This document shows, piece by piece, positions 1,184 to 31,000 of a stretch of 34,836 nt of DNA. The notes beneath the pieces were generated by a model. The model saw nothing but the letters and a program-made list of their open reading frames with translations. It made no database searches and was not told where the DNA came from. Made by a program: the position numbers and the translations under genes. The DNA comes from an uncultured Candidatus Saccharibacteria bacterium. GTDB taxonomy: Bacteria; Patescibacteriota; Minisyncoccia; Phycocordibacterales; UBA9973. The stretch is taken from contig CAZSQH010000001.1 of the NCBI GenBank assembly GCA_964608655.1, forward strand, positions 1 through 34,836, in the 5' to 3' direction. Position 1 is the stretch's first letter. Each line of letters starts with the position of its first letter.

Positions 1184-2692
1184 ATGGAAAAAATAAATAT
1201 AAAGGCAATTCCTCCTTTTGTTACACATGTAACAACAACCCTCCAAAAAGCGGGGTTTGAAGCGTATCTAGTGGGTGGGTGTGTTCGTGATCTTGTTATT
1301 GGAAAGAATCCAAACGATTGGGATGTAACAACGAATGCACACCCAGAAGAAGTACAGAAAATATTTTCCGACGTTAAAACAGTCTGTGAGAACAATTTTG
1401 GTACCGTAACTATTCTGAACATGCCCACAGAAGCAAAAGAGGGCGTTACACGGGAAACACCTAAACAAAATAATATTGTCCAAGTCACAACCTACCGGTC
1501 TGAAGGAACATATACCGATTTTAGACGTCCAGATACAGTTACTTATGAAACAAAATTAGAGAAAGACCTCGAGCGACGCGATTTTACTATAAATGCCCTT
1601 GCTTACGACCCTGTAAAAGACGATATAAAGGACATTTTTGGTGGTATAAAGGACATAAAGGACAAAATAGTACGTTGTGTCCTTTTGCCCTCTGATCGCT
1701 TCCAGGAGGACGCTTTGCGCATGCTCCGTGCTGTAAGGTTTTCCACACAGCTTGATTTTGGAATTGATGGAGAAACTCTTTCTGCTATCGCAACCAACTC
1801 CCATCTTTTAAAGGAAATATCTCCTGAACGTATTCGTGACGAGTTTATTAAAATCATTGAATCAAAAAACCCTGCAATTGGTCTAGGATTGCTTCAAAAA
1901 ACAGGACTTTTGATCTACATTATTCCTGAACTTCTTGAAGGGGTTGGATGTGAGCAAAAAGGAGCCCATATTTACGACGTTTTTGAACACAGTGTTCAAG
2001 CACTCCAACATTCAGCTGACAAAGAGTTTGATACTGATGTTCGTCTTGCGGCACTGTTTCATGACATTGGAAAACCTTCTACTCGCCGATATGACCGATC
2101 TAAAGATAAATACACGTTTTTTGGTCATGAAGTAGTAGGTGCCAGAATGACAAAAAAAATACTTGAACGACTCCATTTTTCACGTGAAACTGTTTCCCGT
2201 GTAACCCTTCTTGTGAGAAACCATATGTTTTTCTCTGATACTGAGCAGATCACCCTCTCTGCTGTTCGTCGTATTATTCGAAATGTTGGACCAGAAAATA
2301 TCTGGCTCCTCATGCAGGTGCGCGAATGTGACCGTGTAGGCATGAAAAAGGCGGAAGCGCCCTATCGATTACGAAAATACCACGCCATGATTGAAGAGGC
2401 GCTCCGGGATCCGATTTCTGTTGGTCAACTCGCTATCGATGGAGTCTACTTGATGGAGGAGTTGCACGTGAAACCAGGACCTCGTATGGGTTGGATACTT
2501 CACGCACTTCTTGAAGAAGTCTTAGAAGATCCATCACTAAACACTGTTGAAAAACTCTCGGAGCGAGCTCGTGATTTAGATGAACAAGACGATAGTACGC
2601 TTAAAACATTAGGGGAAAAGGGGAAGATGGCAAAAGAAGAAGCAAATGAGGGAGAACTAAAAGAGCTTCATAAAAAACACAGAATAAAATAA
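1184..2692 (+). CDS. cca: CCA-adding tRNA nucleotidyltransferase (poly(A) polymerase head domain + C-terminal HD domain)
   Basis: GGCVRDLVIGKNPNDWDVTT head motif, RDFTINA, and HDIGK HD motif. The start is moved to ATG 1184 because the ORF-track start at 1106 lies inside tRNA-Arg. Confidence 0.9.
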   Translation: MEKINIKAIPPFVTHVTTTLQKAGFEAYLVGGCVRDLVIGKNPNDWDVTTNAHPEEVQKIFSDVKTVCENNFGTVTILNMPTEAKEGVTRETPKQNNIVQVTTYRSEGTYTDFRRPDTVTYETKLEKDLERRDFTINALAYDPVKDDIKDIFGGIKDIKDKIVRCVLLPSDRFQEDALRMLRAVRFSTQLDFGIDGETLSAIATNSHLLKEISPERIRDEFIKIIESKNPAIGLGLLQKTGLLIYIIPELLEGVGCEQKGAHIYDVFEHSVQALQHSADKEFDTDVRLAALFHDIGKPSTRRYDRSKDKYTFFGHEVVGARMTKKILERLHFSRETVSRVTLLVRNHMFFSDTEQITLSAVRRIIRNVGPENIWLLMQVRECDRVGMKKAEAPYRLRKYHAMIEEALRDPISVGQLAIDGVYLMEELHVKPGPRMGWILHALLEEVLEDPSLNTVEKLSERARDLDEQDDSTLKTLGEKGKMAKEEANEGELKELHKKHRIK

Positions 2693-2723
2693 AAACCCCA
2701 CATAACAGTGGGATTGTTCTCTA

Positions 2724-3272
2724 TTACATATATTGGCACCAAAAGTTTATTGCGGTGCTATCTTTTTGAGCGATGTAAGAATCTGCAAGGTAAAAATTGA
2801 GTTCTCCTAAAAATTCCTGGAGGTACCTGTTGTACTTAGTAGGAATAACAATTTGTTGAAATTCAAAAAAGTATGCCTGGCGCTCAATTTCTTCAAACAG
2901 TGCATTAAACATTTGCTTTTGATGCTCTTCTGAGGAAGAAAGAAATTGTACAAACAGAAGATAGTGCTCTCCCAACGAATATTGGGCAATAGACATGATT
3001 TGTTTTAATTTTTCATTCCTTATTGCCGCAACAGGGGAGTACCCTGCCATAAATGAAAGAATTTCGGTTGTCTCAGGGTCGATAACAGCATAGAGCATGC
3101 GTATCTTTGCTGAATCAATCAACAGTTTCTTTACTGCAGGTAAAAGCACTGTTGTGTTTAAATTTTCACTTCTTCCTTTTTTTGAAACATACTGTCGCTG
3201 AAGCCCAAACTGAAACTGTATTACTCTATCAACATCGTCTTCGCAGAGTCTGACAATATCGTATTGGTACAT
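2724..3272 (-). CDS. hypothetical protein (182 aa)
   Basis: Clean ORF with a hairpin terminator-like element just downstream (about 2697-2715). No family recognised; GNAT-like is only a guess. Confidence 0.6.
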   Translation of the reverse strand: MYQYDIVRLCEDDVDRVIQFQFGLQRQYVSKKGRSENLNTTVLLPAVKKLLIDSAKIRMLYAVIDPETTEILSFMAGYSPVAAIRNEKLKQIMSIAQYSLGEHYLLFVQFLSSSEEHQKQMFNALFEEIERQAYFFEFQQIVIPTKYNRYLQEFLGELNFYLADSYIAQKDSTAINFWCQYM

Positions 3273-3319
3273 AGGCGTTGTTTTGCCGATTATATCTTTT
3301 TTTATAGCGGTGTGCTAGG

Positions 3320-3715
3320 ATGCTTGAAAATCTTTTGCGTATGCTCTATGCCAAAGAAAAACGTTCATTTTCTATAGGTATCATTGGTGCGGGAACTCTC
3401 TTGCTTCCAAGTCTCGAGGTTCGAGCTCCTATTATCATGACCGATGATCCTTGCATACTGTGTCCCATCGAAGAGGAAAGTGTTGCAACAAAACATCTTG
3501 AGGTTGTTGCGTTAACAAAAACCCGAGAGACGCTTTCTTTAATTTTTGTAATCAAAGAAAGCGATCTATTTTCGTTAGTACCACTGAATAAAGTTCCTTA
3601 TGATTTTGGAATATACACTCCAAAAATCATCAACAAAAAAATATTGCAATCAGTACCCTCTATCAGTCGCGGACCTCCAAAAGTCCGCTGTTTTATTTTT
3701 TTATTGCATTTTTGA
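3320..3715 (+). CDS. doubtful hypothetical ORF (131 aa)
   Basis: Only a long ORF. Its last ~15 codons run through an intrinsic terminator and the composition is unconvincing. The locus may instead be a short gene or an RNA. Confidence 0.25.
   Translation: MLENLLRMLYAKEKRSFSIGIIGAGTLLLPSLEVRAPIIMTDDPCILCPIEEESVATKHLEVVALTKTRETLSLIFVIKESDLFSLVPLNKVPYDFGIYTPKIINKKILQSVPSISRGPPKVRCFIFLLHF
3669..3702 (+). terminator. intrinsic terminator
   Basis: GCGGAC-ctccaaaa-GTCCGC followed by tgttttattttttt. Confidence 0.7.
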
Positions 3716-3747
3716 TAAAACAGGTTAGGATGTAAAAAACAATTGAT

Positions 3748-3879
3748 ATGAAAAAGTACGGCATTGTTGCATTTGGCATGGTTATTGCACTGGTCATTGC
3801 GGTTATTGTTTGTTTTATTGTAGAAATAAAACGAGACGCTTCTGCATCTGCAGTCACGCAAAAATCAAATACAAAATGA
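3748..3879 (+). CDS. small membrane peptide (43 aa)
   Basis: MKKYGIVAFGMVIALVIAVIVCFIVEIKRDASASAVTQKSNTK has one clear TM helix. Not in the ORF track (under 60 aa). Its stop overlaps the next start as ATGA. Confidence 0.5.
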   Translation: MKKYGIVAFGMVIALVIAVIVCFIVEIKRDASASAVTQKSNTK

Positions 3880-4043
3880 CAAACAAAGACATACACGACG
3901 GTTGTTTGGGAATAATAAAAACAGCATTCATTGTTCTTATCATTTTTCTTATATTGAAATATTGTAAAAAAGAAACTCCGACATCTCCCTCTTTAGAAAT
4001 GAAGAGGGTTTTTATTTTTACAGAAAAAGAGAGTATGCTATAG
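3876..4043 (+). CDS. small membrane protein (55 aa)
   Basis: MTNKDIHDGCLGIIKTAFIVLIIFLILKYCKK... has one TM helix. There is an ATGA overlap with the upstream peptide. I chose the internal ATG of ORF 3810..4043. Confidence 0.5.
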   Translation: MTNKDIHDGCLGIIKTAFIVLIIFLILKYCKKETPTSPSLEMKRVFIFTEKESML

Positions 4044-7994: not shown

Positions 7995-8903
7995 TTATTT
8001 TTTGCTGTGAAACTTTTTATGAATCTCTCTGAGTTGGCGGTCGGTAACGTGCGTATAGACCTGTGTTGTCGCAATATTTGCGTGACCTAACATCATCTGA
8101 ACAGAACGAATATCGGCGCCGTTTGATAGTAGGTTTGTTGCAAACGAGTGACGAAGCACGTGAGGGGTAACTTTTTTTGATATCCCTGCTTTTGTTGCAT
8201 AGTGTCGTACAATTCGCTCAATAGAACGCGGAGTGAGTCGTGTGGTACTTTTACTATTTTTTGAAGCATTTACAAACAGCGGCTCTTCCATATCTTTTCG
8301 AGCAGTAAGATATTTTTTAATTGCATCTTTTGCATCAGAAGACAAAAAAACTACACGAATTTTTTCTCCTTTTCCTCTAATGGAAAACTCTTCTTTTGAT
8401 AGATCGAGGTCTCTGTTGAGAGAACACAATTCAGAAAGTCGAAGTCCTGTAGAAAAAAATAGTTCGAGCATTGCTTTGTCACGAAGCTGCTTTATATCGG
8501 TACCATCCGTTGCTTTGAGGAGGCGGTTCAGTTCATCAGTGGAAATAAGGTCGAGGTCTCGAGCACCGACTTTTGCAAGCTCAATTGTATCAGGAGAAAG
8601 TGCTGTAATATTTCTCTTTCGCAAGTATTTCAAAAAGGAGCGCAGCGCGATCATGTAGTAGTTCTGTGTCACTTTTTTCATGGTGGCACTTGTTTGTCCT
8701 TTTACTTTAATTCCTGGCGCTCGATTGAGCTTAAGACGAAATTCTCTGATGCGATCCTCTGTAATATCTGAAACCGCTTGTATGTTCATATCTTTTATAA
8801 AAGTATCGATATAGTGGCCGTAGTTTCTCACCGTTAGCTGGCTTCTTCCTTTTTCTATTTCGATATATTCAAGAAATTGACGCACCGCATCGAGAATCTG
8901 CAT
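7995..8903 (-). CDS. tyrosine site-specific recombinase, XerC/XerD family
   Basis: C-terminal HVLRHSFATNLL...GADIRSVQMMLGHANIATTQVYTHV (R-H-R-Y catalytic pattern). ATG 8903 is chosen because TATACT sits exactly 7 nt upstream. The ORF-track start is a TTG at 8927. Confidence 0.88.
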   Translation of the reverse strand: MQILDAVRQFLEYIEIEKGRSQLTVRNYGHYIDTFIKDMNIQAVSDITEDRIREFRLKLNRAPGIKVKGQTSATMKKVTQNYYMIALRSFLKYLRKRNITALSPDTIELAKVGARDLDLISTDELNRLLKATDGTDIKQLRDKAMLELFFSTGLRLSELCSLNRDLDLSKEEFSIRGKGEKIRVVFLSSDAKDAIKKYLTARKDMEEPLFVNASKNSKSTTRLTPRSIERIVRHYATKAGISKKVTPHVLRHSFATNLLSNGADIRSVQMMLGHANIATTQVYTHVTDRQLREIHKKFHSKK

Positions 8904-9008
8904 ATCAGAAAGTATATAACGTCGCAAAATATTTTTATACCATGGTACTTACGATAAGTATTGACGAAATGCGGTTTGGTATGTAGTATCAACAAAAATA
9001 CTTGTTAT

Positions 9009-9925: not shown

Positions 9926-9957
9926 ACAATACCGTCAGTATGACGGTATTGTTTTAT
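9926..9957 (+). terminator. intrinsic terminator
   Basis: 12-bp stem ACAATACCGTCA/TGACGGTATTGT followed by tttat. It overlaps the ORF-track start at 9940, which I therefore reject. Confidence 0.8.
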
Positions 9958-10008
9958 ACTAGTCTATTTTTCTTTCAAAAGAATACTAAGACGAGTATAC
10001 TGACCTAT

Positions 10009-10518
10009 ATGGCAATTATTAAACAGAAAGACCAGCGCGTAGGAATATTTATCGATACACAAAATCTCTACCACACCGCAAAAAATATCTATAAGCGCAA
10101 GGTAAACTTTGCAAATGTTGTAAAAGATGCCCTTGCGGGAAGAAAACTCATTCGAGCAATTGCCTATGCCATTACTACAGAAAGTGAAGATGAGAGTGCG
10201 TTTTTGAGCGCTCTAACAAAGGCAGGCATTGAAACAAAAGTAAAAGACCTCCAGGTATTTTATGATGGAAGCAAAAAAGCAGATTGGGACATTGGGCTTG
10301 CGATTGATGCAGTAACTATGGCACCAAAACTCGACGCAATTGTTATCATTTCAGGAGATGGAGATTTTGTTCCACTCTGTCGCTATTTACAGTATCACCA
10401 TGGGGTACAAGTTGAGGTGGTAACATTTGGACAATCAGCAGCGACTTCTCTCAGAGAAGCAGCGGATGATTTTTTTGATCTATCGCTTACTCCAAAAAAA
10501 TATCTTCTCGGATATTAG
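10009..10518 (+). CDS. NYN-domain (LabA/DUF88-like) protein
   Basis: RVGIFIDTQNLYH...IVIISGDGDFVPL pattern of NYN/LabA nucleases. TATACT sits 7 nt before ATG 10009. Confidence 0.85.
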   Translation: MAIIKQKDQRVGIFIDTQNLYHTAKNIYKRKVNFANVVKDALAGRKLIRAIAYAITTESEDESAFLSALTKAGIETKVKDLQVFYDGSKKADWDIGLAIDAVTMAPKLDAIVIISGDGDFVPLCRYLQYHHGVQVEVVTFGQSAATSLREAADDFFDLSLTPKKYLLGY

Positions 10519-14228: not shown

Positions 14229-14584
14229 GAAAACCCCGCGCACTGCGCGGGGTTTCAGTTACGAGAAATACACTCGATCTAGAAGAATGTGTTCATTCTT
14301 TAAATCAAACTGTTTTCGTAACTCTTTCTTAGGATCTTTTTCAATTTTTTTCTTTTTTAGATTAAAAAATTGTTTTTTCGATTTTCCTAGTCTCCTAGAA
14401 AGAATCGAGCTTTGTTTACACTACTAGTCTCCCAATGTTTACCTCCTTCTTTTTTTGTTGAATCCAAAAAAGATATATAGTTTGACCACCCTGGTGGTGG
14501 GTGAGGACCTCATTATCGATCCTCACCCAACCGAGTTAGTCAATCATTGTACCTCCTTTTGGTTTTGGTTATTAATTTGGTTTC
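14224..14584 (-). ncRNA. candidate ~360-nt minus-strand transcript without a real ORF
   Basis: Bounded by a consensus promoter (14591-14619, minus) and the terminator at 14231-14255. It contains two AAGGAGGT motifs, each followed by a 3-codon ORF, plus a 9-bp hairpin (14499-14507/14520-14528). The longest ORF I found is 24 codons. Confidence 0.35.
14231..14255. terminator. bidirectional intrinsic terminator
   Basis: CCCCGCGC-act-GCGCGGGG. The T-tract is better on the minus strand (ttttcttattttt) than on the plus strand (ttt). Confidence 0.8.
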
Positions 14585-14590
14585 CTCAGT

Positions 14591-14619
14591 ATACTAGCAG
14601 AATATCTCTATTTTGTCAA
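14591..14619 (-). promoter_or_regulatory. sigma70-type promoter (minus strand)
   Basis: In minus sense, TTGACA (14619-14614), a 17-nt spacer, then TAGTAT (14596-14591). Confidence 0.6.
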
Positions 14620-14625
14620 TATTTT

Positions 14626-14655
14626 TTGACTATTTTCATAAAATCTTTATATAAT
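14626..14655 (+). promoter_or_regulatory. sigma70-type promoter (plus strand), back-to-back with the minus promoter
   Basis: TTGACT (14626-14631), an 18-nt spacer, then TATAAT (14650-14655). Confidence 0.55.
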
Positions 14656-14752
14656 AAGTCAATTTTTGTTATATAAAGTCTATCTTTATAAAATAATATA
14701 GCTATATTTTATATGCTTTTTTAGTCTATTTTAACTATTTTGACAAAATTAC

Positions 14753-14781
14753 TTGACAAAATTATTTATAGGTGCTAGACT
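14753..14781 (+). promoter_or_regulatory. sigma70-type promoter (plus strand) in front of the structured region
   Basis: TTGACA (14753-14758), a 17-nt spacer, then TAGACT (14776-14781). A second TTGACA lies at 14740-14745. Confidence 0.55.
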
Positions 14782-15094
14782 ACCTTCAGAACATTGAAAA
14801 TGAATATCAACAAACAAGAGTTTTAGTTCGCACTCACATATGCACATAAACCATTGTCGGAGTTCGCCTACTAGAAACCCTTGTTTGATAGCCAGTTTTA
14901 ATGGTCGCATCCCGTCTTCTCTCGACGAGAAGCGATTACTAGGAGCAACTCCTTTGAGTCAAACATGTGTGGTGCATGTTCCTAGTAACCGCTTCTTTAG
15001 AGGGTTATAAAGAGTGGAAAATCCAGCAAGGACAACTGCATGTGGAACCCCCCTTGGCAACCGCCGGTTGATTCCCGGCAAAAGAAGGTTTGAA

Positions 15095-15134
15095 GTGGTA
15101 GGTTTTTAAGCTTATGAGCTTAAAAACCTACCAC
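15095..15134. repeat. perfect 18-bp inverted repeat with a 4-nt spacer
   Basis: GTGGTAGGTTTTTAAGCT-tatg-AGCTTAAAAACCTACCAC, read directly. Confidence 0.9.
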
Positions 15135-15380
15135 GCTACTAAGAGAGTCTTGCTCTAAGTAGTCCAAAAAATCTAGGTAAAGCATTCGTTTCTGGTGACG
15201 AATCCTCTCTGGTAACAGAGGAAAGCTTTAATTTAAACGGAGAAACAAAGCCGTATGTGCCAAGGTTTCTCCTCTTTATCAGGATCGTGATTGGAGAGAC
15301 GCCTGTCATGAGTACAGTCGAATGATGGTTCTGTAGAGAGATTTGATCTTTTATAAAAACCAAAACTAAACCAAGGACTT

Positions 15381-15551
15381 ATGAGTAACAAGAAACTCAC
15401 CAAAGGAGATCTGTACGCAGCCGCAAACAAGCTCCTGTCCAAGGCCGGATTTTCATTTGATGGTGCTCCCAAGAAAAACTTTTCGCGCAAGCAGAAGTTT
15501 TTCGAAAGGAAGATCGTCATTATGACACCGATGGGAAACGGTAGCCGGTAA
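15381..15551 (+). CDS. possible small basic protein (56 aa) embedded in the structured region
   Basis: MSNKKLTKGDLYAAANKLLSKAGFSFDGAPKKNFSRKQKFFERKIVIMTPMGNGSR is protein-like and K-rich. AAGGA lies 3 nt before the ATG. Below the ORF-track cutoff. Confidence 0.3.
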   Translation: MSNKKLTKGDLYAAANKLLSKAGFSFDGAPKKNFSRKQKFFERKIVIMTPMGNGSR

Positions 15552-15568
15552 TTTCTCAAGGGTAAACA

Positions 15569-15635
15569 GGCGAGCCTAATTGTAAAATCGCCTCCATTCT
15601 TCAGATCGTGGAGAGAAAACGATCTGATTGTGGGA
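15569..15635 (+). repeat. two-hairpin RNA motif, copy 1
   Basis: GGCGA...TCGCC, then CCATTCTT, then CAGATCG-tggagagaaaa-CGATCTG, then ATTGTGGGA. Homologous to 16406-16465. Confidence 0.6.
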
Positions 15636-16347
15636 TTGATAATTTAATAAACGTCACACGTTCGTAAGGCGCATTCAGGATAGAGAGAATGTTTTGAATA
15701 CGCCTTACGAATCAGCTTGCTGATTTTGTGGGGAACTGCTCTGGAGAGCTCGATAGCCTGGCAACAGGTGATACGGGGCGATTCTTCTGCAGATCGCTTC
15801 GGGGTGAGTCACATCATCCACATCTCCACTCGTCTGGGTTACAAGGGGGGACTAACCATCCTCTCTGGTCTGTAACACAAACGTGTCCTAACTCCTTGGC
15901 GGGGGTAAAGGGAAGTCAGAAGATCTGTTGGCACCAAGGGCTGAACGCCGGAAGTGCATTTCTTTGCTGTAAAGCAAAGATCTGTCCGCCTAGACCAATC
16001 AGATTTGAAAGTTGGTGCCTTGGTTCTCTTGCCGCAAGCGAGGGTGATCAAAGCGCTCCTGTTACCAGCACATGCAGGGTTCGCAAATATTTTGTAAAAA
16101 AATATATGCAACCGGCAAACACAGGGGTAAGTGTGTGACGTAGGACCATACCGTAAACCAGTACGAAAGTGCTGGAGAAAAACGGGAGATAGGGAAGCCC
16201 CCTATCATGTACAAAACGCCGGCCAGCGTAGAGTGCAATAAGTCACACACGGATTGGTTTGCATGTTCCGTTACAAAACATGTGGTCAAAGCTGCTCCCG
16301 TTCGCAACGGTGGTTCAACTTGGGGGTCACCTCAAGGAATTGCAGCA

Positions 16348-16379
16348 AGTATAGGGAGACCTAATCTATACTTTTTTTC
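16348..16379 (+). terminator. intrinsic terminator closing the structured region
   Basis: AGTATAG-ggagacctaat-CTATACT followed by tttttt. Confidence 0.65.
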
Positions 16380-16405
16380 TTAATGTTCTTTATTCAACAT
16401 ATATT

Positions 16406-16465
16406 GGGCGAAATCATTCGCCCCCATTATTCAGATCGGTGAGAGAAACTGGTTTGATTGTGGAA
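16406..16465 (+). repeat. two-hairpin RNA motif, copy 2
   Basis: GGGCGA-aatcat-TCGCCC, then CCATTATT, then CAGATCGG-tgagagaaa-CTGGTTTG, then ATTGTGGAA. Three 3'-strand transitions relative to copy 1 give G-U pairs only in the plus-strand RNA. Confidence 0.6.
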
Positions 16466-16494
16466 ACAATTTTGTTCATTTTAAAACAAAAAGC

Positions 16495-16581
16495 ATGACT
16501 ATTATCTTCATAATTATTTCCGGGATCACATTTGTTGCATGGATATTGATTATGAGAATGATGGTGCAACTTTATAAATAA
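16495..16581 (+). CDS. possible 28-aa hydrophobic peptide
   Basis: MTIIFIIISGITFVAWILIMRMMVQLYK. Its stop lies 2 nt before the next ATG. Confidence 0.35.
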   Translation: MTIIFIIISGITFVAWILIMRMMVQLYK

Positions 16582-16583
16582 AA

Positions 16584-16877
16584 ATGTTTGTATCCCTCAG
16601 AGGATGGCAAACCGGTCGCGAGATCGTGGAGCACGATGGCAAACTGTACTTTGAAGTGGCGGAACAAGGTCACTGCAGTATTTGCCAATCGCGAATCGAT
16701 CACATCAGAGCTGTGGTTGCTCGTAAGCAATTACAAGTAACCTACGGTCATCTGCTTGATCGATTCCCACGTGACGCGAGCACCCTATGGGTGGGATTGG
16801 ATAAACCGAAATCTCAGATGAGTACCGAAGAGATCAAAAATCTCTTTCGAGAAAATTTTGAGCTTCCGATTATCTAA
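16584..16877 (+). CDS. hypothetical protein (97 aa)
   Basis: Clean ORF followed by a ~110-nt structured 3' region and a terminator. Confidence 0.6.
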   Translation: MFVSLRGWQTGREIVEHDGKLYFEVAEQGHCSICQSRIDHIRAVVARKQLQVTYGHLLDRFPRDASTLWVGLDKPKSQMSTEEIKNLFRENFELPII

Positions 16878-16988
16878 TCTTCGGCAAGCCGTCTGGAGAA
16901 GTCCAAACAAAGCTAGATCAAGGGATTTGATCTACGCCCCTGGCTAAGGTGAGAAAACATCTTGAAACTGAAACAAAACAAAAAACAC

Positions 16989-17015
16989 GGCAAGTTTCTA
17001 CTTGCCTCCCTTTTT
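16989..17015 (+). terminator. intrinsic terminator
   Basis: GGCAAGT-ttct-ACTTGCC followed by tcccttttt. Confidence 0.75.
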
Positions 17016-17050
17016 GAAATCATAAAGAAATTTGTGGTTTCAAAATAGGA
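17010..17050 (+). repeat. 41-nt conserved intercassette box, copy 1
   Basis: ctttttgaaatcataaagaaatttgtggtttcaaaatagga is identical to 17589-17629. It contains TTGAAA...TTTCAA inverted arms. Confidence 0.85.
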
Positions 17051-17072
17051 TACGTTCTTTAAATAAAAATAG

Positions 17073-17480: not shown

Positions 17481-17567
17481 TCAGACCGGTGTCACACTTA
17501 CCCTGCAGGTAAGCCGGTTGGTAACAGAAGCGAGTCCGCATTTTTATGCCGACACAAAAAGTGAATT

Positions 17568-17594
17568 GGGAAACTTATGTTTCCCTCTCTTTTT
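17568..17594 (+). terminator. intrinsic terminator
   Basis: GGGAAAC-ttat-GTTTCCC followed by tctcttttt. Confidence 0.75.
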
Positions 17595-17629
17595 GAAATC
17601 ATAAAGAAATTTGTGGTTTCAAAATAGGA
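17589..17629 (+). repeat. 41-nt conserved intercassette box, copy 2
   Basis: Identical to 17010-17050. Confidence 0.85.
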
Positions 17630-17664
17630 AATAATTTTGTTCTTTAACCTTTAAAATATAAAAA

Positions 17665-17934: not shown

Positions 17935-18020
17935 GGAAGCGTACGCACCAGATGGAAAAACCTTTATAACTCACAACCGACGGGATGTTGGTCTGAGGGC
18001 TGGTGAATTCAAAACATAAC

Positions 18021-18050
18021 GAGAAGCTGGATTTCCCGCTTCTCTTTTTT
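18021..18050 (+). terminator. intrinsic terminator
   Basis: GAGAAGC-tggatttcc-GCTTCTC followed by tttttt. Confidence 0.7.
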
Positions 18051-18118
18051 ATCAAAATCTTAAATAGCTATTTGAGGTTTTGTAGAAAAAAATTTGTTCA
18101 TTTTAAAAAACTTTATAT

Positions 18119-23260: not shown

Positions 23261-23725
23261 ATGAGATATTTTTCTTTACTGCTTCTTTTTTTCATAGTAC
23301 CCACCCCTGTAGTGGGTGCAACATTTAAAAATATGACCCTCCCTTTTGGGGGAAGAGTACTCACCACTGAACTTCCTGGAGTTACCTGTCTAAACCCTAT
23401 CGGAACTGCCCCGGTAGTACTCACCAGCAACCTTGCTGGTCTTCTTCGCGCAGGTACCGCTGCTGCAGATGGGAGTCAAGCCACTGGACAAAGAGTCACA
23501 AATATAGCAACAGGACTCTATAGAGCGATTCCTCTCTACACATGGGCATACACAAAAAATAGTGGAGGAGTGCCTGCGCAGCAGCCAAAACAAGGTGATT
23601 GGATTTTGGGAAGACAAAAAATTGTCCCCAATTTTTCTACTTGCCTCATCGGAGAAACAGTTCCTTTCCCTGTGGTCGAAACAGACAACTTTGGAATAAC
23701 AAGATCATCTTCCCTTGGAAGATAG
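23261..23725 (+). CDS. small secreted protein, first gene of the T4SS-like operon (154 aa)
   Basis: Signal peptide MRYFSLLLLFFIVPTPVVGA. TATACT sits 7 nt before the ATG. No family recognised. Confidence 0.7.
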   Translation: MRYFSLLLLFFIVPTPVVGATFKNMTLPFGGRVLTTELPGVTCLNPIGTAPVVLTSNLAGLLRAGTAAADGSQATGQRVTNIATGLYRAIPLYTWAYTKNSGGVPAQQPKQGDWILGRQKIVPNFSTCLIGETVPFPVVETDNFGITRSSSLGR

Positions 23726-23730
23726 CCCTT

Positions 23731-24615
23731 ATGGAACCATCATCAAGACCTAGTAAACAATTTATCATTCGAGGAAGTATCGCGACCGGAATTGTTGCCA
23801 TTATTCTTATTGTGCAAACTGCATGGTTTCGAGCACTGTTCAATAAAGCACCCCTTGTGCCAATAAACCCAAACGAGACCGTAGGAGATCTTATTACTCG
23901 AGATACCAACGAAAATAACATCCCCGATTGGGAAGAGAAGCTTTGGGGACTTGATCCGACAGTCCTCTACACTGACGGTGTTCCCAATGCAGAGATCATT
24001 GCAGAAAAAAAGAAAGCTCTGGGAGTTATTCCTTCAGGTATGCCTGAAAATGAGACCGATGCGCTTGCCCGAGAGCTCCTCACTATAACGTCAGCCCTTG
24101 GGCAATCTGGAGAACTTTCAGACGAAGCACTTGCCCAAGTAGGGGCACAACTTGCCGAATCAGTTGAATTTCAACAATATGAAAATCATTTTTCACTAAA
24201 AGATGTGCGTACTGTGCAAACAAACAGCACCAGTCTCACTAACTACTACAATTCATTTGGGGCGATTGCTCGAAAATATGCCGCAAGCGCTTCTGAGATA
24301 GACATTATTGCAAAAGCACTCGAAAATGGTGACTTTTCTAACCTTTCACAACTTGAAAATATTGAAAGTCAGTATGAACAGTACGCAAAAGAAGCAATCG
24401 CGCTTTCTGTACCCGTAGGAGTACAGCTCATCCACCTTGAGATGGTCAATAGTATTTATGGATTTTCGATTGCCACAGGATTTATGCGAGAACTTTCTAC
24501 AAATGGAGCAAATGCGCTTGCGGGAATTGCTCTCTATAAGATAAATGATGCTCGTTTTACAAACGCAAGTGAAGCACTACGAACATATTTAACCAGATAC
24601 GGTATACTTGAGTAG
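23731..24615 (+). CDS. N-terminally membrane-anchored hypothetical protein (294 aa)
   Basis: Internal ATG of ORF 23599..24615; the extension overlaps the upstream gene. TM helix IATGIVAIILIVQTAWF. Confidence 0.7.
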   Translation: MEPSSRPSKQFIIRGSIATGIVAIILIVQTAWFRALFNKAPLVPINPNETVGDLITRDTNENNIPDWEEKLWGLDPTVLYTDGVPNAEIIAEKKKALGVIPSGMPENETDALARELLTITSALGQSGELSDEALAQVGAQLAESVEFQQYENHFSLKDVRTVQTNSTSLTNYYNSFGAIARKYAASASEIDIIAKALENGDFSNLSQLENIESQYEQYAKEAIALSVPVGVQLIHLEMVNSIYGFSIATGFMRELSTNGANALAGIALYKINDARFTNASEALRTYLTRYGILE

Positions 24616-24639
24616 GTTATTAAGGTTACAGATTATCAC

Positions 24640-27000
24640 GTGTATCCACGAAACACACATTTATATACGAGTACCATCTTCTTTATACTTTTTTTTGCCG
24701 TTCTCTTGTCTCCCTCCCTTCTCTTTGCTCAAACTGTTCGTTACTCAGGAACATGTATCGACAGCGTGGATAATGACAACGATGGGCGCCGAGACGCCCA
24801 AGATCCAACCTGCAACGAAAGCTATGGGTTCTGTGAGGTGATGACTGAAACATGCCGTCGACAAGTGAGCGCTATTGCTTCTTCAAATGCTCGTCAGCGA
24901 TTCAATCCTTCCGCGACTATTCAAGGAAGTGGTCGCACGTTTGGTGGGGTACAGTTCAGTGGAGTTGGAGGAGCGCTTGCGAGCTGTCTTGATGTGGGCG
25001 GATCGGTGGTACGAGGGATCAGCTCTGTCGCAAGCGACTTATTTAAAAATACGGCAAAAGAAAAACTGGTCGAAGAAGCAAAGAAATCTGCACTTTCTGC
25101 GGTAACTGAAGCAACAGGAGCACTTGAAAAAATACCCGTTGAAGATAGTAAATTAGCAGAAGAAACAAAAAAGGCAAATCAGCGAGAGAGTTGTCTCAAT
25201 GGGGTAGCATACGCCATCGCAAAAAGTCTTTTACAACAAGTAACCAATAAAACACTCAGTTGGGTAAACACCGGTTTTAATGGCAACCCACTCTATGTGC
25301 GAGATATCGATTCCTACTTAAAAACAGTATCTGATGAAAAAATAAATCAATATTTAAATCGTATCCCAAACCAAAATCCTATATTTGGAAATGCGATTCG
25401 CTCAATTGTGACTCAACAAGTAGGGGGTATTCAAGATGGACTCATAAGTAAAACAATGAACACCCCTCAGGCACAAGCGTATGAAAATTTTCAAAATAAT
25501 TTTACCAATGGCGGGTGGCGTGCATTTCTTGACCCTCGCAATGATGCAGTCGGCTCTCTACTTGAAACAGCAGAAGATATTGGGGATGATGTTGGAACAG
25601 TCCAACAAAACGTAATTGACCAGCTCAATCGCAACAGCAACTTTTTAAACCTCACTCGCTGTGTTGAGTATGAAGACGTTGCAGAAGCACAAGCATACCT
25701 AGATAGGTGTCAGGGAGTAACAGACGATGGTGTAGGAAATGAAAACTATGAGTACGCTGGGTGTGGTCACACACAACTGCAAATCATGCAACAACGCATC
25801 AACAATCCTGCTTGTTTAAAAACAGAAACAGTAACCCCAGGATCAGTCATTGCGGCGCAAACCACTGCTGTAACCACCTCCGCAATACGACAACTTGAAC
25901 AAGCAGATGAAATAAACGAAGTGCTTGGATCATTTTTTGATCAAATGCTCAACCGACTCATTTCCGATGGACTCTCTTCTGTTCGAGGAAAAAGTTCTAT
26001 TCCTTTTAGTTACAGCGGGGCAGGAGCGAATGTCGTCATTGGAACAAATGGGCAACCGATTGGCGCTGGGAGTTCTGCGGTGATTGGAGCGCTGGGCTAT
26101 CGAAGTGCTCGTGGTGGCTATGAAGTGACTGAATTTGACATGACTCGCCCTCAAGAGCTTCGAGCAATACTCCAAACACAATATGATTATCTCAGTCGAT
26201 TAAAAGATGCTCGCCAAGCAGTTGATCGTATTGTGCCTACACTTGGTGCACTTGATTATTGTGTTCCGGGACCAAACCCAACATGGCCCGATGGATTTGC
26301 TGGTAATGTGGATATATTTTTTGAAAACCTACAGGAAGTAACAAAAGAATCAAGCTTGGGAAGAAAACTGTTGCAAAGCATTCCTATCATTGGTGCCTTG
26401 TTTGGAGGAGAGCCAAAACCAGATACCATCGCGGTGTCAGACCTTCTCCTGTATGACAAAGCAAGTGGTGCTGGGCAGAACGTAGGAGATAGAGCATTTC
26501 ACAGAAAACGAAGAGAGGGATTTGAGCTTGCAGAAAAAATACAAAACGCATATGACAACCTAGTAACAGACTACAATAATCACTACACTCCTCAAAAAAT
26601 TGTTGATGCATTTGTTCGGGTTGATAGCGATCCAGTATTTGCAAAAGCAACAATTGAAGATATCCTTGCGGAAACAAGCAATCTTCCTGGATACGGACTC
26701 GGTATTGTAGAAATAGAAAATGAATACAACCCAGCAGAAATCGGCGTGATCAATGCGATTAACGAACTTGAAGATATTCGACAAGAAGCAAATGAAATCG
26801 TAAGTATTGCAAAAGCACGCTACATACGAGAGCAAGAACTTGCCGGAACCCCTGTAAATCTAGAGTGTATCAATAGTGCGTATGTTATCGATACCACTCC
26901 TATTATCCCTGTTGCTCGACAAGAAGGAGATGCAGTGTCGCCATTTTATGAACGATCAAACAACGCAACCATTAATTTCTATAACACGCTTCGCCTATAG
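24640..27000 (+). CDS. large secreted protein, hypothetical (786 aa)
   Basis: Signal peptide ..LLFAQT. Cys-rich N-terminus with the Asp-rich motif DSVDNDNDGRRDAQDP. GTG start, so the start is uncertain. Confidence 0.8.
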   Translation: MYPRNTHLYTSTIFFILFFAVLLSPSLLFAQTVRYSGTCIDSVDNDNDGRRDAQDPTCNESYGFCEVMTETCRRQVSAIASSNARQRFNPSATIQGSGRTFGGVQFSGVGGALASCLDVGGSVVRGISSVASDLFKNTAKEKLVEEAKKSALSAVTEATGALEKIPVEDSKLAEETKKANQRESCLNGVAYAIAKSLLQQVTNKTLSWVNTGFNGNPLYVRDIDSYLKTVSDEKINQYLNRIPNQNPIFGNAIRSIVTQQVGGIQDGLISKTMNTPQAQAYENFQNNFTNGGWRAFLDPRNDAVGSLLETAEDIGDDVGTVQQNVIDQLNRNSNFLNLTRCVEYEDVAEAQAYLDRCQGVTDDGVGNENYEYAGCGHTQLQIMQQRINNPACLKTETVTPGSVIAAQTTAVTTSAIRQLEQADEINEVLGSFFDQMLNRLISDGLSSVRGKSSIPFSYSGAGANVVIGTNGQPIGAGSSAVIGALGYRSARGGYEVTEFDMTRPQELRAILQTQYDYLSRLKDARQAVDRIVPTLGALDYCVPGPNPTWPDGFAGNVDIFFENLQEVTKESSLGRKLLQSIPIIGALFGGEPKPDTIAVSDLLLYDKASGAGQNVGDRAFHRKRREGFELAEKIQNAYDNLVTDYNNHYTPQKIVDAFVRVDSDPVFAKATIEDILAETSNLPGYGLGIVEIENEYNPAEIGVINAINELEDIRQEANEIVSIAKARYIREQELAGTPVNLECINSAYVIDTTPIIPVARQEGDAVSPFYERSNNATINFYNTLRL

Positions 27001-27003
27001 CTT

Positions 27004-27945
27004 ATGAAGAAAATCCTTAAACTAATTTTGCTTATCGTCATCATTGTTGCCATTGTTTTGGTGGTATGGTGGCTCGTCGGAAGAAATACCGCTGTTAAAA
27101 ATGGAACCTCTCCTGTTTCATTTCGTTCATTTATTGGATTAGGAGATGGTAATCCTCTCCCTGGACCTGATAGTGGAGGGCTCACTCCTGATACTACTGG
27201 CTCTCAAGGTACTGCTACTACCCCTGATGGAAATGATGACGGTATAGACGATGACTTTTCTGATGAAAATGACGTACTCGATAGAGACTATGCTGATGTA
27301 AGCGTATTTACTGAGGGACCACTCACACCAGCAGATTCAGATGGGGGAGGAGCTGGTGGTGGAAGCACGGGAGGTGGTGGAACAAGTGGTGGTGGAGGAG
27401 CTGGTGGTGGAAGCACGGGAGGTGGTGGAACAAGTGGTGGTGGAGGAGCTGGTGGTGGAAGCACGGGAGGTGGTGGAACAAGTGGTGGTGGTACCCCACC
27501 TGGAGATATTCCTCCTGTATTTCCCATATGCTCTGATGCTGATGTTACGATCACCTTCACTCCTGATGAAATCAGAAGACTCAATGCTCTTCAGACACGC
27601 TTTTATGCTATTGCTGTTGATCTTCGAACTGACACCGATGTTGATACTGAACTTGTAAACTATGATGTGTTTAAAGCAAAAGCAGACACCATCGCAGAAT
27701 TCTATAACTATTGCCAATCAAAAGCTCCCCTCATCACAGCGGCACCTTACAAGACCCGTGTGGGAACTCCCTATTGGTATGAGCCAGGAAAAGATCAAAC
27801 CGGCTATCTTAACAATATGCGTGTGTATTCAACTTCTAGCACTTTTATCAACAATGCCCTCAACAACTATCGTATCGTGAACCCTTACGATCAATCACGC
27901 ACAAAAGCGGTGCTTGAACATTTGTTTAAAGTAAATCTTTGGTAA
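27004..27945 (+). CDS. membrane-anchored protein with a Gly-rich tandem-repeat linker (313 aa)
   Basis: TM helix ILKLILLIVIIVAIVLVVWWLV. An acidic stretch, then a 3 x 16-aa Gly/Ser/Thr repeat, then a ~150-aa C-terminal domain. Confidence 0.8.
   Translation: MKKILKLILLIVIIVAIVLVVWWLVGRNTAVKNGTSPVSFRSFIGLGDGNPLPGPDSGGLTPDTTGSQGTATTPDGNDDGIDDDFSDENDVLDRDYADVSVFTEGPLTPADSDGGGAGGGSTGGGGTSGGGGAGGGSTGGGGTSGGGGAGGGSTGGGGTSGGGTPPGDIPPVFPICSDADVTITFTPDEIRRLNALQTRFYAIAVDLRTDTDVDTELVNYDVFKAKADTIAEFYNYCQSKAPLITAAPYKTRVGTPYWYEPGKDQTGYLNNMRVYSTSSTFINNALNNYRIVNPYDQSRTKAVLEHLFKVNLW
27346..27489. repeat. three perfect tandem copies of a 48-bp unit (in-frame, coding)
   Basis: ggaggagctggtggtggaagcacgggaggtggtggaacaagtggtggt occurs at 27346-27393, 27394-27441 and 27442-27489. 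Confidence 0.95.
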
Positions 27946-28005
27946 GTATTGTTTTCCTCTTTAATATTGCTTAAATATAAGCATAGTTACTGGTATACTG
28001 TGTAC

Positions 28006-31000
28006 GTGCACGCACGCTTTTTTCCCTTTATAAAAAAGTTACAGAAGGTGTTTTTTCGTACAACAAAAACATTGGTGCTTTCTCTTGTCCTTATTTTTTC
28101 TTTTCTCTCAAGTGTCGCTCCCGCGTTCGCTCAAGGAGTTGACCAGTGTCCTGGTGTTGTAGGAATACAAACATCAACCCCTTGCGAAAGTAAGTGGGAT
28201 GAGTATAAAACCCTTTTCACAAAAGGAGATACAGAAAAACCAATCTTCGGGTATGGGTGGTTATTTGATAACGAAACAAACAAAACGAAAGTGACTGGCA
28301 TTCGCTTCTCTTTTATAGCAAAGTTTGATTTAACAAAACACACTAAAAAATGGTACTGGGACCATGTCGTTTCTTATAACGATGATAATGATAATGGTTT
28401 CATAATCCGTATTTGTTCTGTAGGAACAGATGGTCAAATAACTACTTCTTGCTCATACACCCCTGTGAGTTATTTACGAGGACAAAATGCAGCAACCGTA
28501 GAAATTGCTCGAGCTATCAATCAAGATGTTTTTACAACCGCTATTTATAGAAATATTTACGACGCCCCACCAGGAGATTTATTTCTTGGTGTTTTACAAA
28601 ATGACTACCGTAACAAATTTGGTGTAAATGTTGCTTTAGCAAATACTTCTCTTAGCCCAGCTTTAACTCCAGGAAATCGATACCAGGCAGACTTTTGGTA
28701 CTGTCCAGGAAATAGTGAGACAAGAAACGATGCTACAGATCCAAACACAACAGAAAACGGCCCCATATCTCCAAATATTCCAACAAATGATGAGCATATT
28801 AAAGATTTTGGTCCTTTATGTAAAGGAATAAGTGATCATCGTGCTTATTTTAGAATAGGAGAACCAAAAACATTTATTTATCCTGCCACAATAGAAGATG
28901 CAACCAATGACACTGGGGTCACCGCTGCTGCAACAAATGAAGACAATTATTCTGATCGCGATGGGAATGATTCCATCCTTCCAAAATGTCACATCCTCAA
29001 TGGATGGGGACCAGGAACAGGATCGTTTGTCGGGTGCCTTGCAGTTCTAGGATACTACATGATTTACCGACCTATTCAGTGGTTTGCTGGTTTAATGGGT
29101 AATATCTTTGACTTTTTCCTTGGATACTCTATTAGCGATGAGGCCTACCGGATGGAGTTTGCAGTAAAAGGGTGGCAGCTTATCCGTGATATTTCAAATA
29201 TTTTCTTTATCATTATTTTGGTATGGACTGGATTTGCAACTGTTTTCAGTATAGGAAACATCTCTATGAAGCAGGTGGTACCTGCACTCATCGTCAATGC
29301 GCTCATTATTAACTTTAGCTTATTTGCGACTCGAGTTGCGATTGATATTTCAAACATATTTGCTCGTGTTATCTACAACTCCATGAGTGTAGTAGACAAC
29401 AACAAAAACACTCTTTCTGGACCAGGGGGATACAAATCACTTTCTGCAAAAATTGTATCGTCATTTAATCCACAAAACATGTTTAAAACTCAGTATATTT
29501 CTCCTGAGCAAGAACTCGTCCAAAACTATGATCCCAAAAATGATGATGATGCCACTGCTGGAGGAGGAGCATATGACGGAGGAACATTTAACTCACAATC
29601 AGCAGGAACAGATCTTGAGAATGCAAAAAAACTAAGACGTACTGATAGTGCGTACGCAGGATACTTTATCATTGTGACGCTTCTTGCGGGGACAATATTG
29701 TTTGGTGTTGCAAAAATGTTTTGGAAAACTGCATTTCTTTTCCTTGGAAGAGTGATGGGGCTCTACATTACTATGATTTTTGCCCCATTTGCATTTCTTA
29801 CAAGAAAAAATATGCCCCTCATAGGAGGCATCCCCCAAATATCGTGGAGTTCATGGATAAAAGATCTCACAAACTATTGTTTGATGGCACCGGTGTTTAT
29901 GTTGTTCTTGTACGTTGTCTATCTCTTTGTAAACAGTGAATTTGTTCAAGTATTTGCAAATAAAGAAACTGATTTTTTTGAAGCGGTCATTGCCATTGCA
30001 GTCCCGATGTTGATTGTGTATACCCTTATTAATTTTGGGGTAAATATTGCAAAAAGTTTTTCTGGAACAGTTGGGCAAATGATTCAAAATAAAGTAGAAG
30101 GTATCACAGGAGGAATTGGTGGTATTGCAGGAACTGCGGTTGGAGTAGGTGCGGGAGCGCTTGCGTTTGCTGGAAGAAATGTACTCGGAAGAGGAATGCG
30201 TTCGTTTGGAAAAAGTAAAACTGGAAGAATGATTAAAGATAAGGATGGAAACGACGTCGAAGAAACGAGAGAAATGAGTTGGGCAGCAAATGCTGATAGT
30301 AGCAAGTGGGCACGCTTCATGAACTACGCTACCAACAAGAGCCAGACAGGGTCATGGGATGTGCGCAACTTGGGAGTAAAAATCGGAAAGAAAGAATACA
30401 CCGCCGGAGGAACATTTAACAAAGGATTTGGATTGCTCAGTCAAGAAAAAATCTCAGATAAGCTCAGTGACGACCTTGGTGTTGGAAAAGATAAGGCGCT
30501 CGGAAAAGGAGATAAACCTGGTGGTATTTTGAAACTTGACGAAGAAAATAAGAAAGCGCGAGCAGAAAAACTCAAAAATAAAATCAAGTATGATCATCTC
30601 TCTGATGAAGATGCTCAAAAAATATGGGCGGAAATTCGAAGAAAGAAAATTGAACAATATGGTGAAGCTGAATGGGAAAAACATGTTGGTTCAACTGACG
30701 CAATGAAGTTCCATAAAGAAAAGTTTGAAACTGCAGAAAAAGAATTAAAAGAAGCTAAAGATGCTTTGAAGAAAGCGCAAGAAGAAGGAAAAACATCTCT
30801 CGCTGCAGACCAGTTGAAAGTAAAACGAGCAGAAGAAAATGTAGAAAAAATAAAGAAAGAAAAAGAACAAGCAGAAAAACAACTTATTGCCGATATAAAA
30901 CTAGGAAAACATGGAGATCGTAAAAAAGAAGCGATTGAAGCTGCTAAAAAAGCAGAAGAAGAACGTCTTGATAAGTATGGAAACATAAAAAACAAGAGTG

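Follow-up and report, generated by a model that had tools for sequence, protein, structure and literature searches.

In a 34,836-nucleotide (nt) stretch of contig CAZSQH010000001.1 from an uncultured Candidatus Saccharibacteria bacterium (assembly GCA_964608655.1), the whole of which is called the window hereafter, positions 14788-16379 form one unit, from a promoter to a putative terminator, in which a conserved gene for a 56-amino-acid (aa) protein stands between two large folded non-coding RNA segments. The 5' segment, named RNA-A, and the larger 3' segment, named RNA-B, are both genuine structured RNAs outside any known class. A sequence-only reading of the window had taken the same interval for a single ornate RNA of about 1.6 kb, rich in hairpins and free of open reading frames (ORFs). 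Large conserved plus-strand structure outside Rfam is indeed found there, and the presence of real conserved RNA structure is highly likely, whereas the notion of a single RNA did not stand: the interval is very probably composite, with five or more separate elements, among them a protein gene and three copies of an intercistronic hairpin module, which account for part of the reported hairpin density. The two non-coding parts also differ in history, as the 5' half of RNA-A occurs in six lineages, and RNA-B in one lineage other than that of the window, in a slot of variable content.

For the comparative analysis, 44 related loci (designated by L and a number) were fetched in total, with the 97-aa protein encoded downstream of the unit, the 56-aa protein and one metagenome scan as the probes; the 97-aa protein retrieved 24 homologues and the 56-aa protein 13. 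The locus L042 (GCA_020851595.1) carries the whole unit, with window positions 15267-16486 and L042 positions 646-1850 sharing 81.8% identity, and its RNA-B homologue (1024-1745) is 82% identical over the whole length. We computed the minimum free energy (MFE) fold of the window RNA-B alone, which comprises 246 pairs, and mapped the L042 substitutions onto it, using 2000 permutations among columns of the same base as the control. As a result, 171 pairs were unchanged, 20 stayed paired after a change on one side and 14 after changes on both sides; 16 were broken by a change on one side and eight by changes on both, and 17 aligned to a gap. The 14 kept double changes compare with a permutation mean of 2.8 and a maximum of 10, and the 24 broken pairs with a mean of 44 and a minimum of 32. 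RNAalifold, applied to the window and L042 sequences together, likewise gave compensatory pairs at 19 of 197, and substitutions are more frequent at the paired positions (18.5%) than at the unpaired ones (14.2%). Furthermore, three terminal loops retain the GNRA form in both sequences: GCAA at 15761-15764 is identical, the second changes from GAAA to GCAA while its stem also changes, and the third changes from GUAA to GCAA on a hairpin that is replaced by a shorter one. The compensatory changes thus indicate that selection on the RNA-B structure continued after the split between the window and L042. The plus-strand fold (MFE -269.9 kcal/mol) is 45 kcal/mol more stable than the minus-strand fold (-225.3 kcal/mol).

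We also inspected RNA-B for coding capacity. None of the 14 indels relative to L042 is a multiple of three (eight of 1 nt, five of 2 nt and one of 10 nt), and the frames switch between the two sequences, any one frame of the window matching several in L042. Six-frame scans of RNA-B against Pfam and PHROG gave no match, and a search of its 146-aa open frame against 1.84 billion representative proteins returned one repetitive low-complexity match and no true homologue. What is maintained in 15651-16379 is structure, not a coding sequence. Alternative genetic codes were tried and rejected: recoding of TGA opens a 281-aa minus-strand frame with a Cys/Arg/Pro-rich nonsense translation, recoding of TAG or TAA gives no believable gene, and the long ORFs of the genome end in all three stop codons. 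As a separate observation, an element of 9-10 nt occurs three times in RNA-B (CGUCACACG at 15652-15660, GUGUGUGACG at 16131-16140 and GUCACACAC at 16242-16250), and the middle copy can pair with either of the others, which would give mutually exclusive long-range helices; the G-to-A change at 15653 and the C-to-U change at 16139 in L042 are compensatory for the first pairing and produce a wobble in the second.

RNA-A combines a conserved 5' half with a hypervariable 3' half. The 5' half was found in six lineages as seven copies (the window, L005-L008, L042, L044, L038/L039 with two copies, and L003). Its enclosing helix (14811-14823/14875-14887) surrounds the conserved core CGCACUCA...GGAGUUNGCC and is spelled with lineage-specific letters, which were read directly as CAAACAAG/CTTGTTTG in the window, ACAAGGC/GCCTTGT in L005, GACAC/GTGTC in L003 and AAAAC.GTTA/TAACGTTTT in L038. 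The 23-bp hairpin P3 (14925-14947/14977-14999) is the hallmark of this half, with 93% of the cells paired over seven sequences and both sides changed in 10 of the 23 pairs; the slid controls gave only 0-1 double-changed pairs, and none of the 500 shuffles reached the observed value. Four G-U positions of P3, which would read A-C on the opposite strand, are retained in most sequences, and the covariance model R1 scores 65-82 bits on the plus strand and 32-46 bits on the minus strand, the plus strand being higher by about 30 bits in every copy. This strand bias, together with the conserved G-U pairs, argues that the RNA-A element is read as plus-strand RNA. P3 is conserved in its sequence as well as its structure, and the conserved sequence inside it suggests specific recognition beyond the duplex length alone. 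Despite flanks of 70-86% identity, the 3' half could not be aligned by blastn with L005, L042 or L044, and it may be mere spacer. RNA-A always lies right after the promoter and before a gene, which may be the small gene, Ro60 (in L038) or a 106-aa gene (in L003).

The compositional claims of the sequence-only reading were largely reproduced. The interval 14788-16379 has 45.5% G+C where the window averages 40.0% (standard deviation 2.2% for windows of the same size), which places it in the top 0.2% as the richest 1.6 kb; no other 729 nt of the window are as rich as RNA-B (49.1%), and the promoter region that precedes the unit has 30.6%. On the plus strand, 14788-15280 has a folding energy far below that of dinucleotide shuffles (z = -6.0), as has 15651-16379 (z = -4.5). 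An inverted-repeat search recovered the long stems at 14928-14947/14977-14996 (20 nt, 90%), 15095-15112/15117-15134 (18 nt, 100%), 15661-15677/15695-15711 (17 nt, 94%) and 16131-16142/16239-16250 (12 nt, 92%), and the four local hairpins that had been named are also present in the sequence.

The two consensus promoters that had been pointed out upstream were both recovered, with scores of 11/12 for 14626-14655 and 10/12 for 14753-14781; consensus sites in this AT-rich stretch number 8, versus 7.6 in shuffles, and thus show no enrichment. The 14753-14781 promoter, which probably starts the unit near 14788, is kept at the equivalent place in five relatives (L003, L005, L038, L042 and L044) as TTGACAAA...TGCTAnACT, and the conserved start CAGAACATTGAAA follows it in all five. 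At the other end, a putative terminator (16349-16378) consists of a 6-7-bp hairpin at 16349-16371 followed by U7, as had been proposed. The scan did not call it because only two of its pairs are G-C, which is below the scan criterion, and its hairpin is kept in L042 with one compensatory base change. The segment could not be assigned to any known RNA class, in agreement with the first reading: cmscan against Rfam, over the whole window at the gathering score and over 14300-16800 at E<=10 with permissive filters, yielded only four chance-level snoRNA/miRNA matches and none to the models of group I or II introns, RNase P RNA, transfer-messenger RNA (tmRNA), 6S RNA, signal recognition particle RNA, riboswitches or leaders. 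ARAGORN found no tRNA or tmRNA in the region, and the literature that we searched holds no description of large structured RNAs in Saccharibacteria.

The statement that the interval lacks a credible protein gene, on the other hand, proved wrong. The frame at 15381-15551 keeps its start, its stop and its reading frame among the homologues, and the family shares the motif ...ANKLL..G[FY].FDG..KK..SRKQKFFE...I.TPMGNGSR. The 13 database homologues are 57-100% identical with 21 invariant columns, and seven more occur in the fetched loci; homologues lie in L010, L026, L020, L038, L032 and L003, and the frame is called as a gene in L002. This conservation pattern marks 15381-15551 as a protein-coding gene under purifying selection.

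The remaining elements of the unit belong to a two-hairpin module that recurs between genes. It opens with a G+C hairpin, which a U-rich tract follows; next come a second hairpin, 13-24 bp long, and a TTGTTCATTTAAAA tail that runs up to the next ATG. The U-rich tract serves as the outer 5' arm of the second hairpin, and a purine run (UGUGG, AUAGGA or UAGAGA) as its outer 3' arm. Copy 2 is orthologous to the sole module of L005 (4568-4648) and copy 3 to L042 1770-1855, and the two contribute a direct repeat, D2 (15588-15633 versus 16418-16463; 46 nt, 83% identical), that brackets RNA-B. Further modules precede the next small genes at 16985-17072, 17564-17664 and 18017-18118. With nhmmer, 40 module matches were obtained across the loci, all on the coding (plus) strand, and modules precede almost every small gene of the operon and of its relatives (L005, L035, L038, L040, L041, L042 and L044), with no Shine-Dalgarno sequence near the genes that follow them. 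RNAalifold on 20 module copies returned no pairs, as the 3' arms are out of register in the MAFFT alignment, and single-sequence folds were used instead; 20 of the 20 aligned copies adopt the same fold with differing stem sequences, the second hairpin being maintained through compensatory base changes. The modules had no match in Rfam. We also considered the module as a promoter and rejected it, as the -35/-10 spacings read by eye gave no consistent -10 with a terminal T. Two of the copies, at 17002-17039 and 17581-17618, are near-identical (95% over 38 nt), and it is exactly at the first of them that L001, a Logan contig, stops, so the repeat breaks short-read assemblies of the locus.

Table 1. 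Positions of the promoter-to-terminator unit, its parts and the downstream anchor gene in the window.
Feature	Position	Strand	Remarks
Sigma-70-type promoter, extended -10	14753-14781	+	TTGACA-17-TGcTAGACT; scan 10/12 with TG; kept in relatives
RNA-A, whole	14788-15272	+	about 485 nt; conserved 5' half, hypervariable 3' half
RNA-A, conserved 5' domain	14788-15010	+	alignments A5 and A8 of 6-7 homologues
RNA-A, hypervariable 3' half	15011-15238	+	includes the perfect 18-bp hairpin 15095-15134
Module copy 1	15239-15341	+	terminator-like G+C hairpin 15239-15272; second hairpin 15271-15341, 5' arm is the U-rich tract
Gene for the conserved 56-aa basic protein	15381-15551	+	AAGGA 8 nt before the ATG
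Module copy 2	15569-15635	+	hairpin 15569-15592, second hairpin 15593-15635; left member of the direct repeat around RNA-B
RNA-B, structured non-coding RNA	15651-16379	+	about 730 nt; own putative terminator (hairpin 16349-16371 and U7)
RNA-B, closing helix	15652-15660/16132-16140	+	G-C to A-U change in L042
RNA-B, hairpin	15661-15711	+	four compensatory pairs and one repaired mismatch versus L042
RNA-B, GNRA hairpins	15757-15768; 16158-16176	+	predicted fold
RNA-B, hairpin with conserved CUAACCA loop	15844-15866	+	loop invariant, stem rebuilt from other bases in L042
RNA-B, hairpin	16188-16206	+	predicted fold
Module copy 3	16406-16494	+	hairpins 16406-16423 and 16424-16463, then TTGTTCATTTTAAAA tail to the next ATG; right member of the direct repeat
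Downstream anchor gene, 97-aa protein with H-C-x-x-C motif	16584-16877	+	conserved, 24 homologues; outside the unit, probe for related loci

The related loci share a common layout, in which a TrmB-like gene, divergent promoters, a long non-coding leader (in some lineages), a gene for 50-56 aa, a variable slot and the 97-aa gene follow one another, with housekeeping genes further out. Two contigs from Logan match the window almost exactly, and a Candidatus Saccharibacteria metagenome-assembled genome (L003) encodes a 57%-identical relative of the TrmB-like gene of the window. A protein search of viral contigs detected no relatives of the 56-aa or the 97-aa protein. The slot that RNA-B fills in the window, with the small gene on one side and the 97-aa gene on the other, has a cargo that differs by lineage: L005 has one module and a 114-aa ORF; L020 a 43-aa ORF, an element that matches the tRNA-like ends of the Rfam tmRNA model, and an ankyrin gene; L021 five small ORFs; and L026 nothing. 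Blastn and nhmmer searches for RNA-B across the 44 loci found copies only in L042 and L043 and none elsewhere in the window, blastn of phages and plasmids gave no match, and three conserved 22-23-mers of RNA-B found nothing in viral contigs.

Several RNA-linked features were encountered in the same operon of relatives. In L038, an orthologue of Ro60 (TROVE and Ro60 vWA domains; 2144-3748), also present in L039, lies further upstream between two RNA-A-like units and is followed at 3748-3900 by a short structured stretch with the T-loop-like sequence GGTTCGAGT. The L020 element spans 120 nt (2561-2680) and scores 57.5 bits against the Rfam tmRNA model (gathering score 47) via the two ends of the model only; it is a tRNA-like domain without the mRNA part, and ARAGORN calls nothing there. 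Downstream of the 97-aa-family gene, type III hammerhead ribozymes whose CUGAUGA...GAAA core is intact occur in L004 (2424-2479, 49.5 bits), L042 (2503-2558, 43.6 bits) and L038 (5794-5848, 38.4 bits). By eye, window positions 16940-16975 resemble a degenerate hammerhead, CCCUGGCUAAGG...GAAACUGAAAC.

Taken as a whole, we favour, with moderate confidence, the interpretation that the unit is a small-protein mRNA with two large, evolutionarily maintained RNA structures, namely, a dual-function transcript from which processing sets a stable RNA free. The strong conserved promoter at 14753-14781 would initiate transcription near 14788, and the first 485 nt or so would fold into RNA-A, the conserved 5' domain first and the fast-evolving 3' half next. 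The primary transcript would then read through the leaky terminator-like modules, the small gene, the second module and RNA-B to the final hairpin and U7. Cleavage might occur at the long duplexes, since P3 and the module hairpins are helices of RNase III size, and the operon hammerheads would add further cuts in some relatives; the occurrence of these ribozymes in the operon argues that cutting of its RNA matters. RNA-A would work mostly in cis, as the processed leader that controls the small gene. RNA-B would build up as a stable structured RNA that acts in trans and to which the basic 56-aa protein possibly binds. Co-transcription, processing, the stability of RNA-B, its trans action and its protein partner are all steps that we infer. 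For RNA-B itself, action in trans as a free RNA or ribonucleoprotein (RNP) is thus put forward tentatively. It is a rather doubtful extension that RNA-B founds a new class of large (about 730 nt) ornate RNAs specific to Saccharibacteria or Patescibacteria, processed from a polycistronic small-gene transcript and working as free RNA or RNP, possibly with the 56-aa protein. Together with the Ro60 gene, the hammerheads and the tRNA-like element that relatives carry at this locus, such an RNA would make it an "RNA island" in an ultra-reduced genome.

Several observations weigh against the dual-function transcript. RNA-B is missing from L005 and other close relatives in which RNA-A and the small gene are kept, and is therefore dispensable for the locus, and L010 and L026 are without the long RNA-A leader, with the promoter about 50 nt before the small gene. 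The covariation in RNA-B comes from two independent sequences, as L043 is identical to L042, and the MFE fold is certainly wrong in places, because 24 of its pairs break. In the window itself, the Rfam model found no hammerhead. Finally, the AlphaFold model of the 56-aa protein is weak (predicted local distance difference test score, pLDDT, 70), and co-location is the sole basis that suggests its partnership with RNA-A or RNA-B.

The main rival, which we consider unlikely although the other alternatives are minor beside it, holds that both segments are purely cis-acting untranslated regions, RNA-A being a long regulatory leader of the small gene (an attenuator, or a leader for protein binding or processing) and RNA-B a long structured 3' region or spacer that stabilizes the mRNA or sets the read-through into the small-gene array downstream; as free RNAs, both would be without function. 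This would suit the placement of RNA-A and RNA-B in one promoter-to-terminator unit around a real gene, the lack of a separate promoter before RNA-B as far as could be seen, the resemblance of the modules to leaky terminators and the constant position of RNA-A between the promoter and a gene. However, known stabilizers and attenuators need far less than a conserved multi-helix structure of 730 nt that has a putative terminator of its own. Moreover, between the window and L042, RNA-B is 82% conserved like the adjacent protein gene, whereas the downstream genes differ, and other relatives do without RNA-B.

RNA-B could instead be a selfish or mobile non-coding cargo cassette of a recombination hot spot, or the remnant of one, inserted together with a duplicated module and having no role for the host. 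The 46-nt direct repeats formed by the module copies (83%) do flank RNA-B, the slot content does differ among lineages, and L005 lacks RNA-B. Still, the compensatory changes speak for continued structural selection, no integrase, transposase, reverse transcriptase or ribozyme lies next to it, and no copies occur elsewhere in the window or the 44 loci or in the phage, plasmid and viral collections. The cassette is an improbable explanation.

Two further alternatives retain very little probability. Decay of one or more protein genes, which the first reading had itself raised, might be read from the overlapping 74-136-aa ORFs on both strands and from the protein genes that occupy the slot in relatives, but no frame is conserved with L042 and every indel is frame-breaking, six-frame Pfam and PHROG remnants are absent, the 146-aa frame is without a real homologue, tblastx against all loci was negative, stop recoding opens no believable gene, and compensatory pair changes are unexpected in a pseudogene. 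Equally hard to credit are hairpins acting at the DNA level, as single-stranded structures or protein-binding palindromes of an origin-like or transfer-related kind near type IV secretion genes: the perfect 18-bp palindrome at 15095-15134, the near-perfect long inverted repeats, the TraG-like and other large genes downstream in the window and the tolerance of single-stranded DNA for G-T wobbles would be in keeping with them, but GNRA loops survive substitutions, a promoter and a putative terminator frame the segment, many of the helices are short, irregular and multi-branched in a manner unlike protein-binding palindromes, and the surroundings in relatives are housekeeping genes and no transfer region.

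The processed dual-function transcript would be of interest for several reasons. Saccharibacteria genomes are among the smallest of bacteria, and more than 1 kb of non-coding sequence under structural selection is therefore unexpected in them and implies a function that repays the cost. Among bacterial RNAs longer than 500 nt, those without an assigned function are very few, and each such class is highly interesting to RNA biologists. As handles, the locus offers a defined promoter with a putative terminator, a small basic protein that is probably co-transcribed, and a conserved 23-bp hairpin, and the relatives without RNA-B or without the long leader provide natural "knock-outs". The Ro60 gene, the hammerheads and the tRNA-like element in the operon of relatives share a theme, which points to RNA metabolism or RNA quality control.

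Other features of the neighbourhood were recorded as well. AlphaFold2 gave a confident model of the 97-aa protein (pLDDT 91), for which a comparison with the PDB found no fold match with E<0.06. Just upstream of its gene, a 28-aa hydrophobic ORF, MTIIFIIISGITFVAWILIMRMMVQLYK (16495-16581), may encode a small membrane peptide or be a remnant; its equivalent place holds the 114-aa ORF in L005 and a 54-aa ORF in L042. On the minus strand, 14424-14556 contains two three-codon mini-ORFs, each behind a strong Shine-Dalgarno sequence: GGAGGT with ATG ATT GAC TAA (14547->14536), followed by a G+C hairpin (14533->14494), and GGAGGT with TTG GGA GAC TAG (14435->14424), both framed by a minus-strand promoter (14619->14591) and terminator (14256->14230). 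An M-x-D-stop mini-ORF with a hairpin occurs at the same place in L026/L010 (ATG CAC GAC TAA), in L003 and L020 (ATG GGT GAC TAA/TGA) and in L005 (ATG GGA GAT TAA). At L003 10330-10625, a consensus promoter (TTGACA-17-TATACT) precedes about 270 nt of very G+C-rich sequence and then a strong terminator; the stretch has neither an ORF nor a match in Rfam and may represent another unclassified small RNA from the same genome neighbourhood. Further away, the window encodes a Xer-like tyrosine recombinase (7995-8927, minus strand), a NYN-domain nuclease (9940-10518) and a TraG/VirB4-like P-loop ATPase (33321-34835) that runs off the window end; the large genes at 23599-31647, which have no Pfam match, may belong with this ATPase.

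Finally, we compared the unit with known systems. It resembles an integron array in that small genes on the same strand, whose content varies among close relatives and one slot of which is non-coding, are separated by a structured repeat with conserved shape and variable sequence. However, the sole tyrosine recombinase (7995-8927) lies 6 kb off behind seven genes, the RYYYAAC/GTTRRRY cores were not seen in the alignment of 20 module copies, and the window repeat reads as an RNA terminator plus hairpin on the coding strand; with neither an adjacent integrase nor attC cores, the integron reading was rejected. A reading as Y RNA was likewise examined. Y RNAs are 80-130 nt long and carry a GGUCCGA-like motif, YrlA also has a tRNA-like domain, and the bacterial Y RNA/YrlA genes lie within 4 kb of the Ro60 (TROVE) gene on the same strand (PMC4201824). 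In L038, and there alone, the Ro60 gene between RNA-A-like units follows this same-strand pattern with structured RNA. However, RNA-A (about 490 nt) and RNA-B (about 730 nt) are far outside the size range, 14788-16379 contains no GGTCCGA or GGTCNGA and no tRNA-like element (by ARAGORN and the Rfam tRNA and tmRNA models), and TROVE is absent from the 27 window ORFs scanned against Pfam, a set that leaves out several ORFs under about 180 aa. With size, motif and Ro60 proximity all lacking in the window, the Y RNA reading was also rejected.

The kinship with giant orphan RNAs such as GOLLD, ROOL and OLE that the sequence-only reading had proposed extends only to the size and ornateness of RNA-B, and their covariance models do not match. 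Like GOLLD, ROOL, OLE, HEARO and raiA, RNA-B is a multi-helix RNA of the 700-nt class without an ORF, enriched in G+C relative to its genome, with GNRA-capped hairpins and compensatory changes; it differs in giving no match to any Rfam covariance model even at E<=10. In contrast to GOLLD-type RNAs, it is embedded in a small-gene operon, apparently without its own promoter, neither adjoins tRNAs nor sits in a prophage, and is known from two independent sequences, both on Saccharibacteria-like contigs. In rRNA operons and phage early transcripts, polycistronic RNAs are processed at RNase III stems or cut by ribozymes, and the unit shares with these the near-perfect duplexes of 18-23 bp between its parts and, in three relatives, the hammerheads of the operon, cleavage being a prediction here. 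The Staphylococcus RNAIII, a dual-function RNA, is a structured regulatory RNA of about 500 nt that also encodes the 26-aa delta-haemolysin. The window unit differs from it in having no Rfam match, in being three times longer and in consisting of separable parts with different phylogenetic distributions, but it has in common with RNAIII that a small coding frame and the extensive conserved RNA structure flanking it belong to one transcript.

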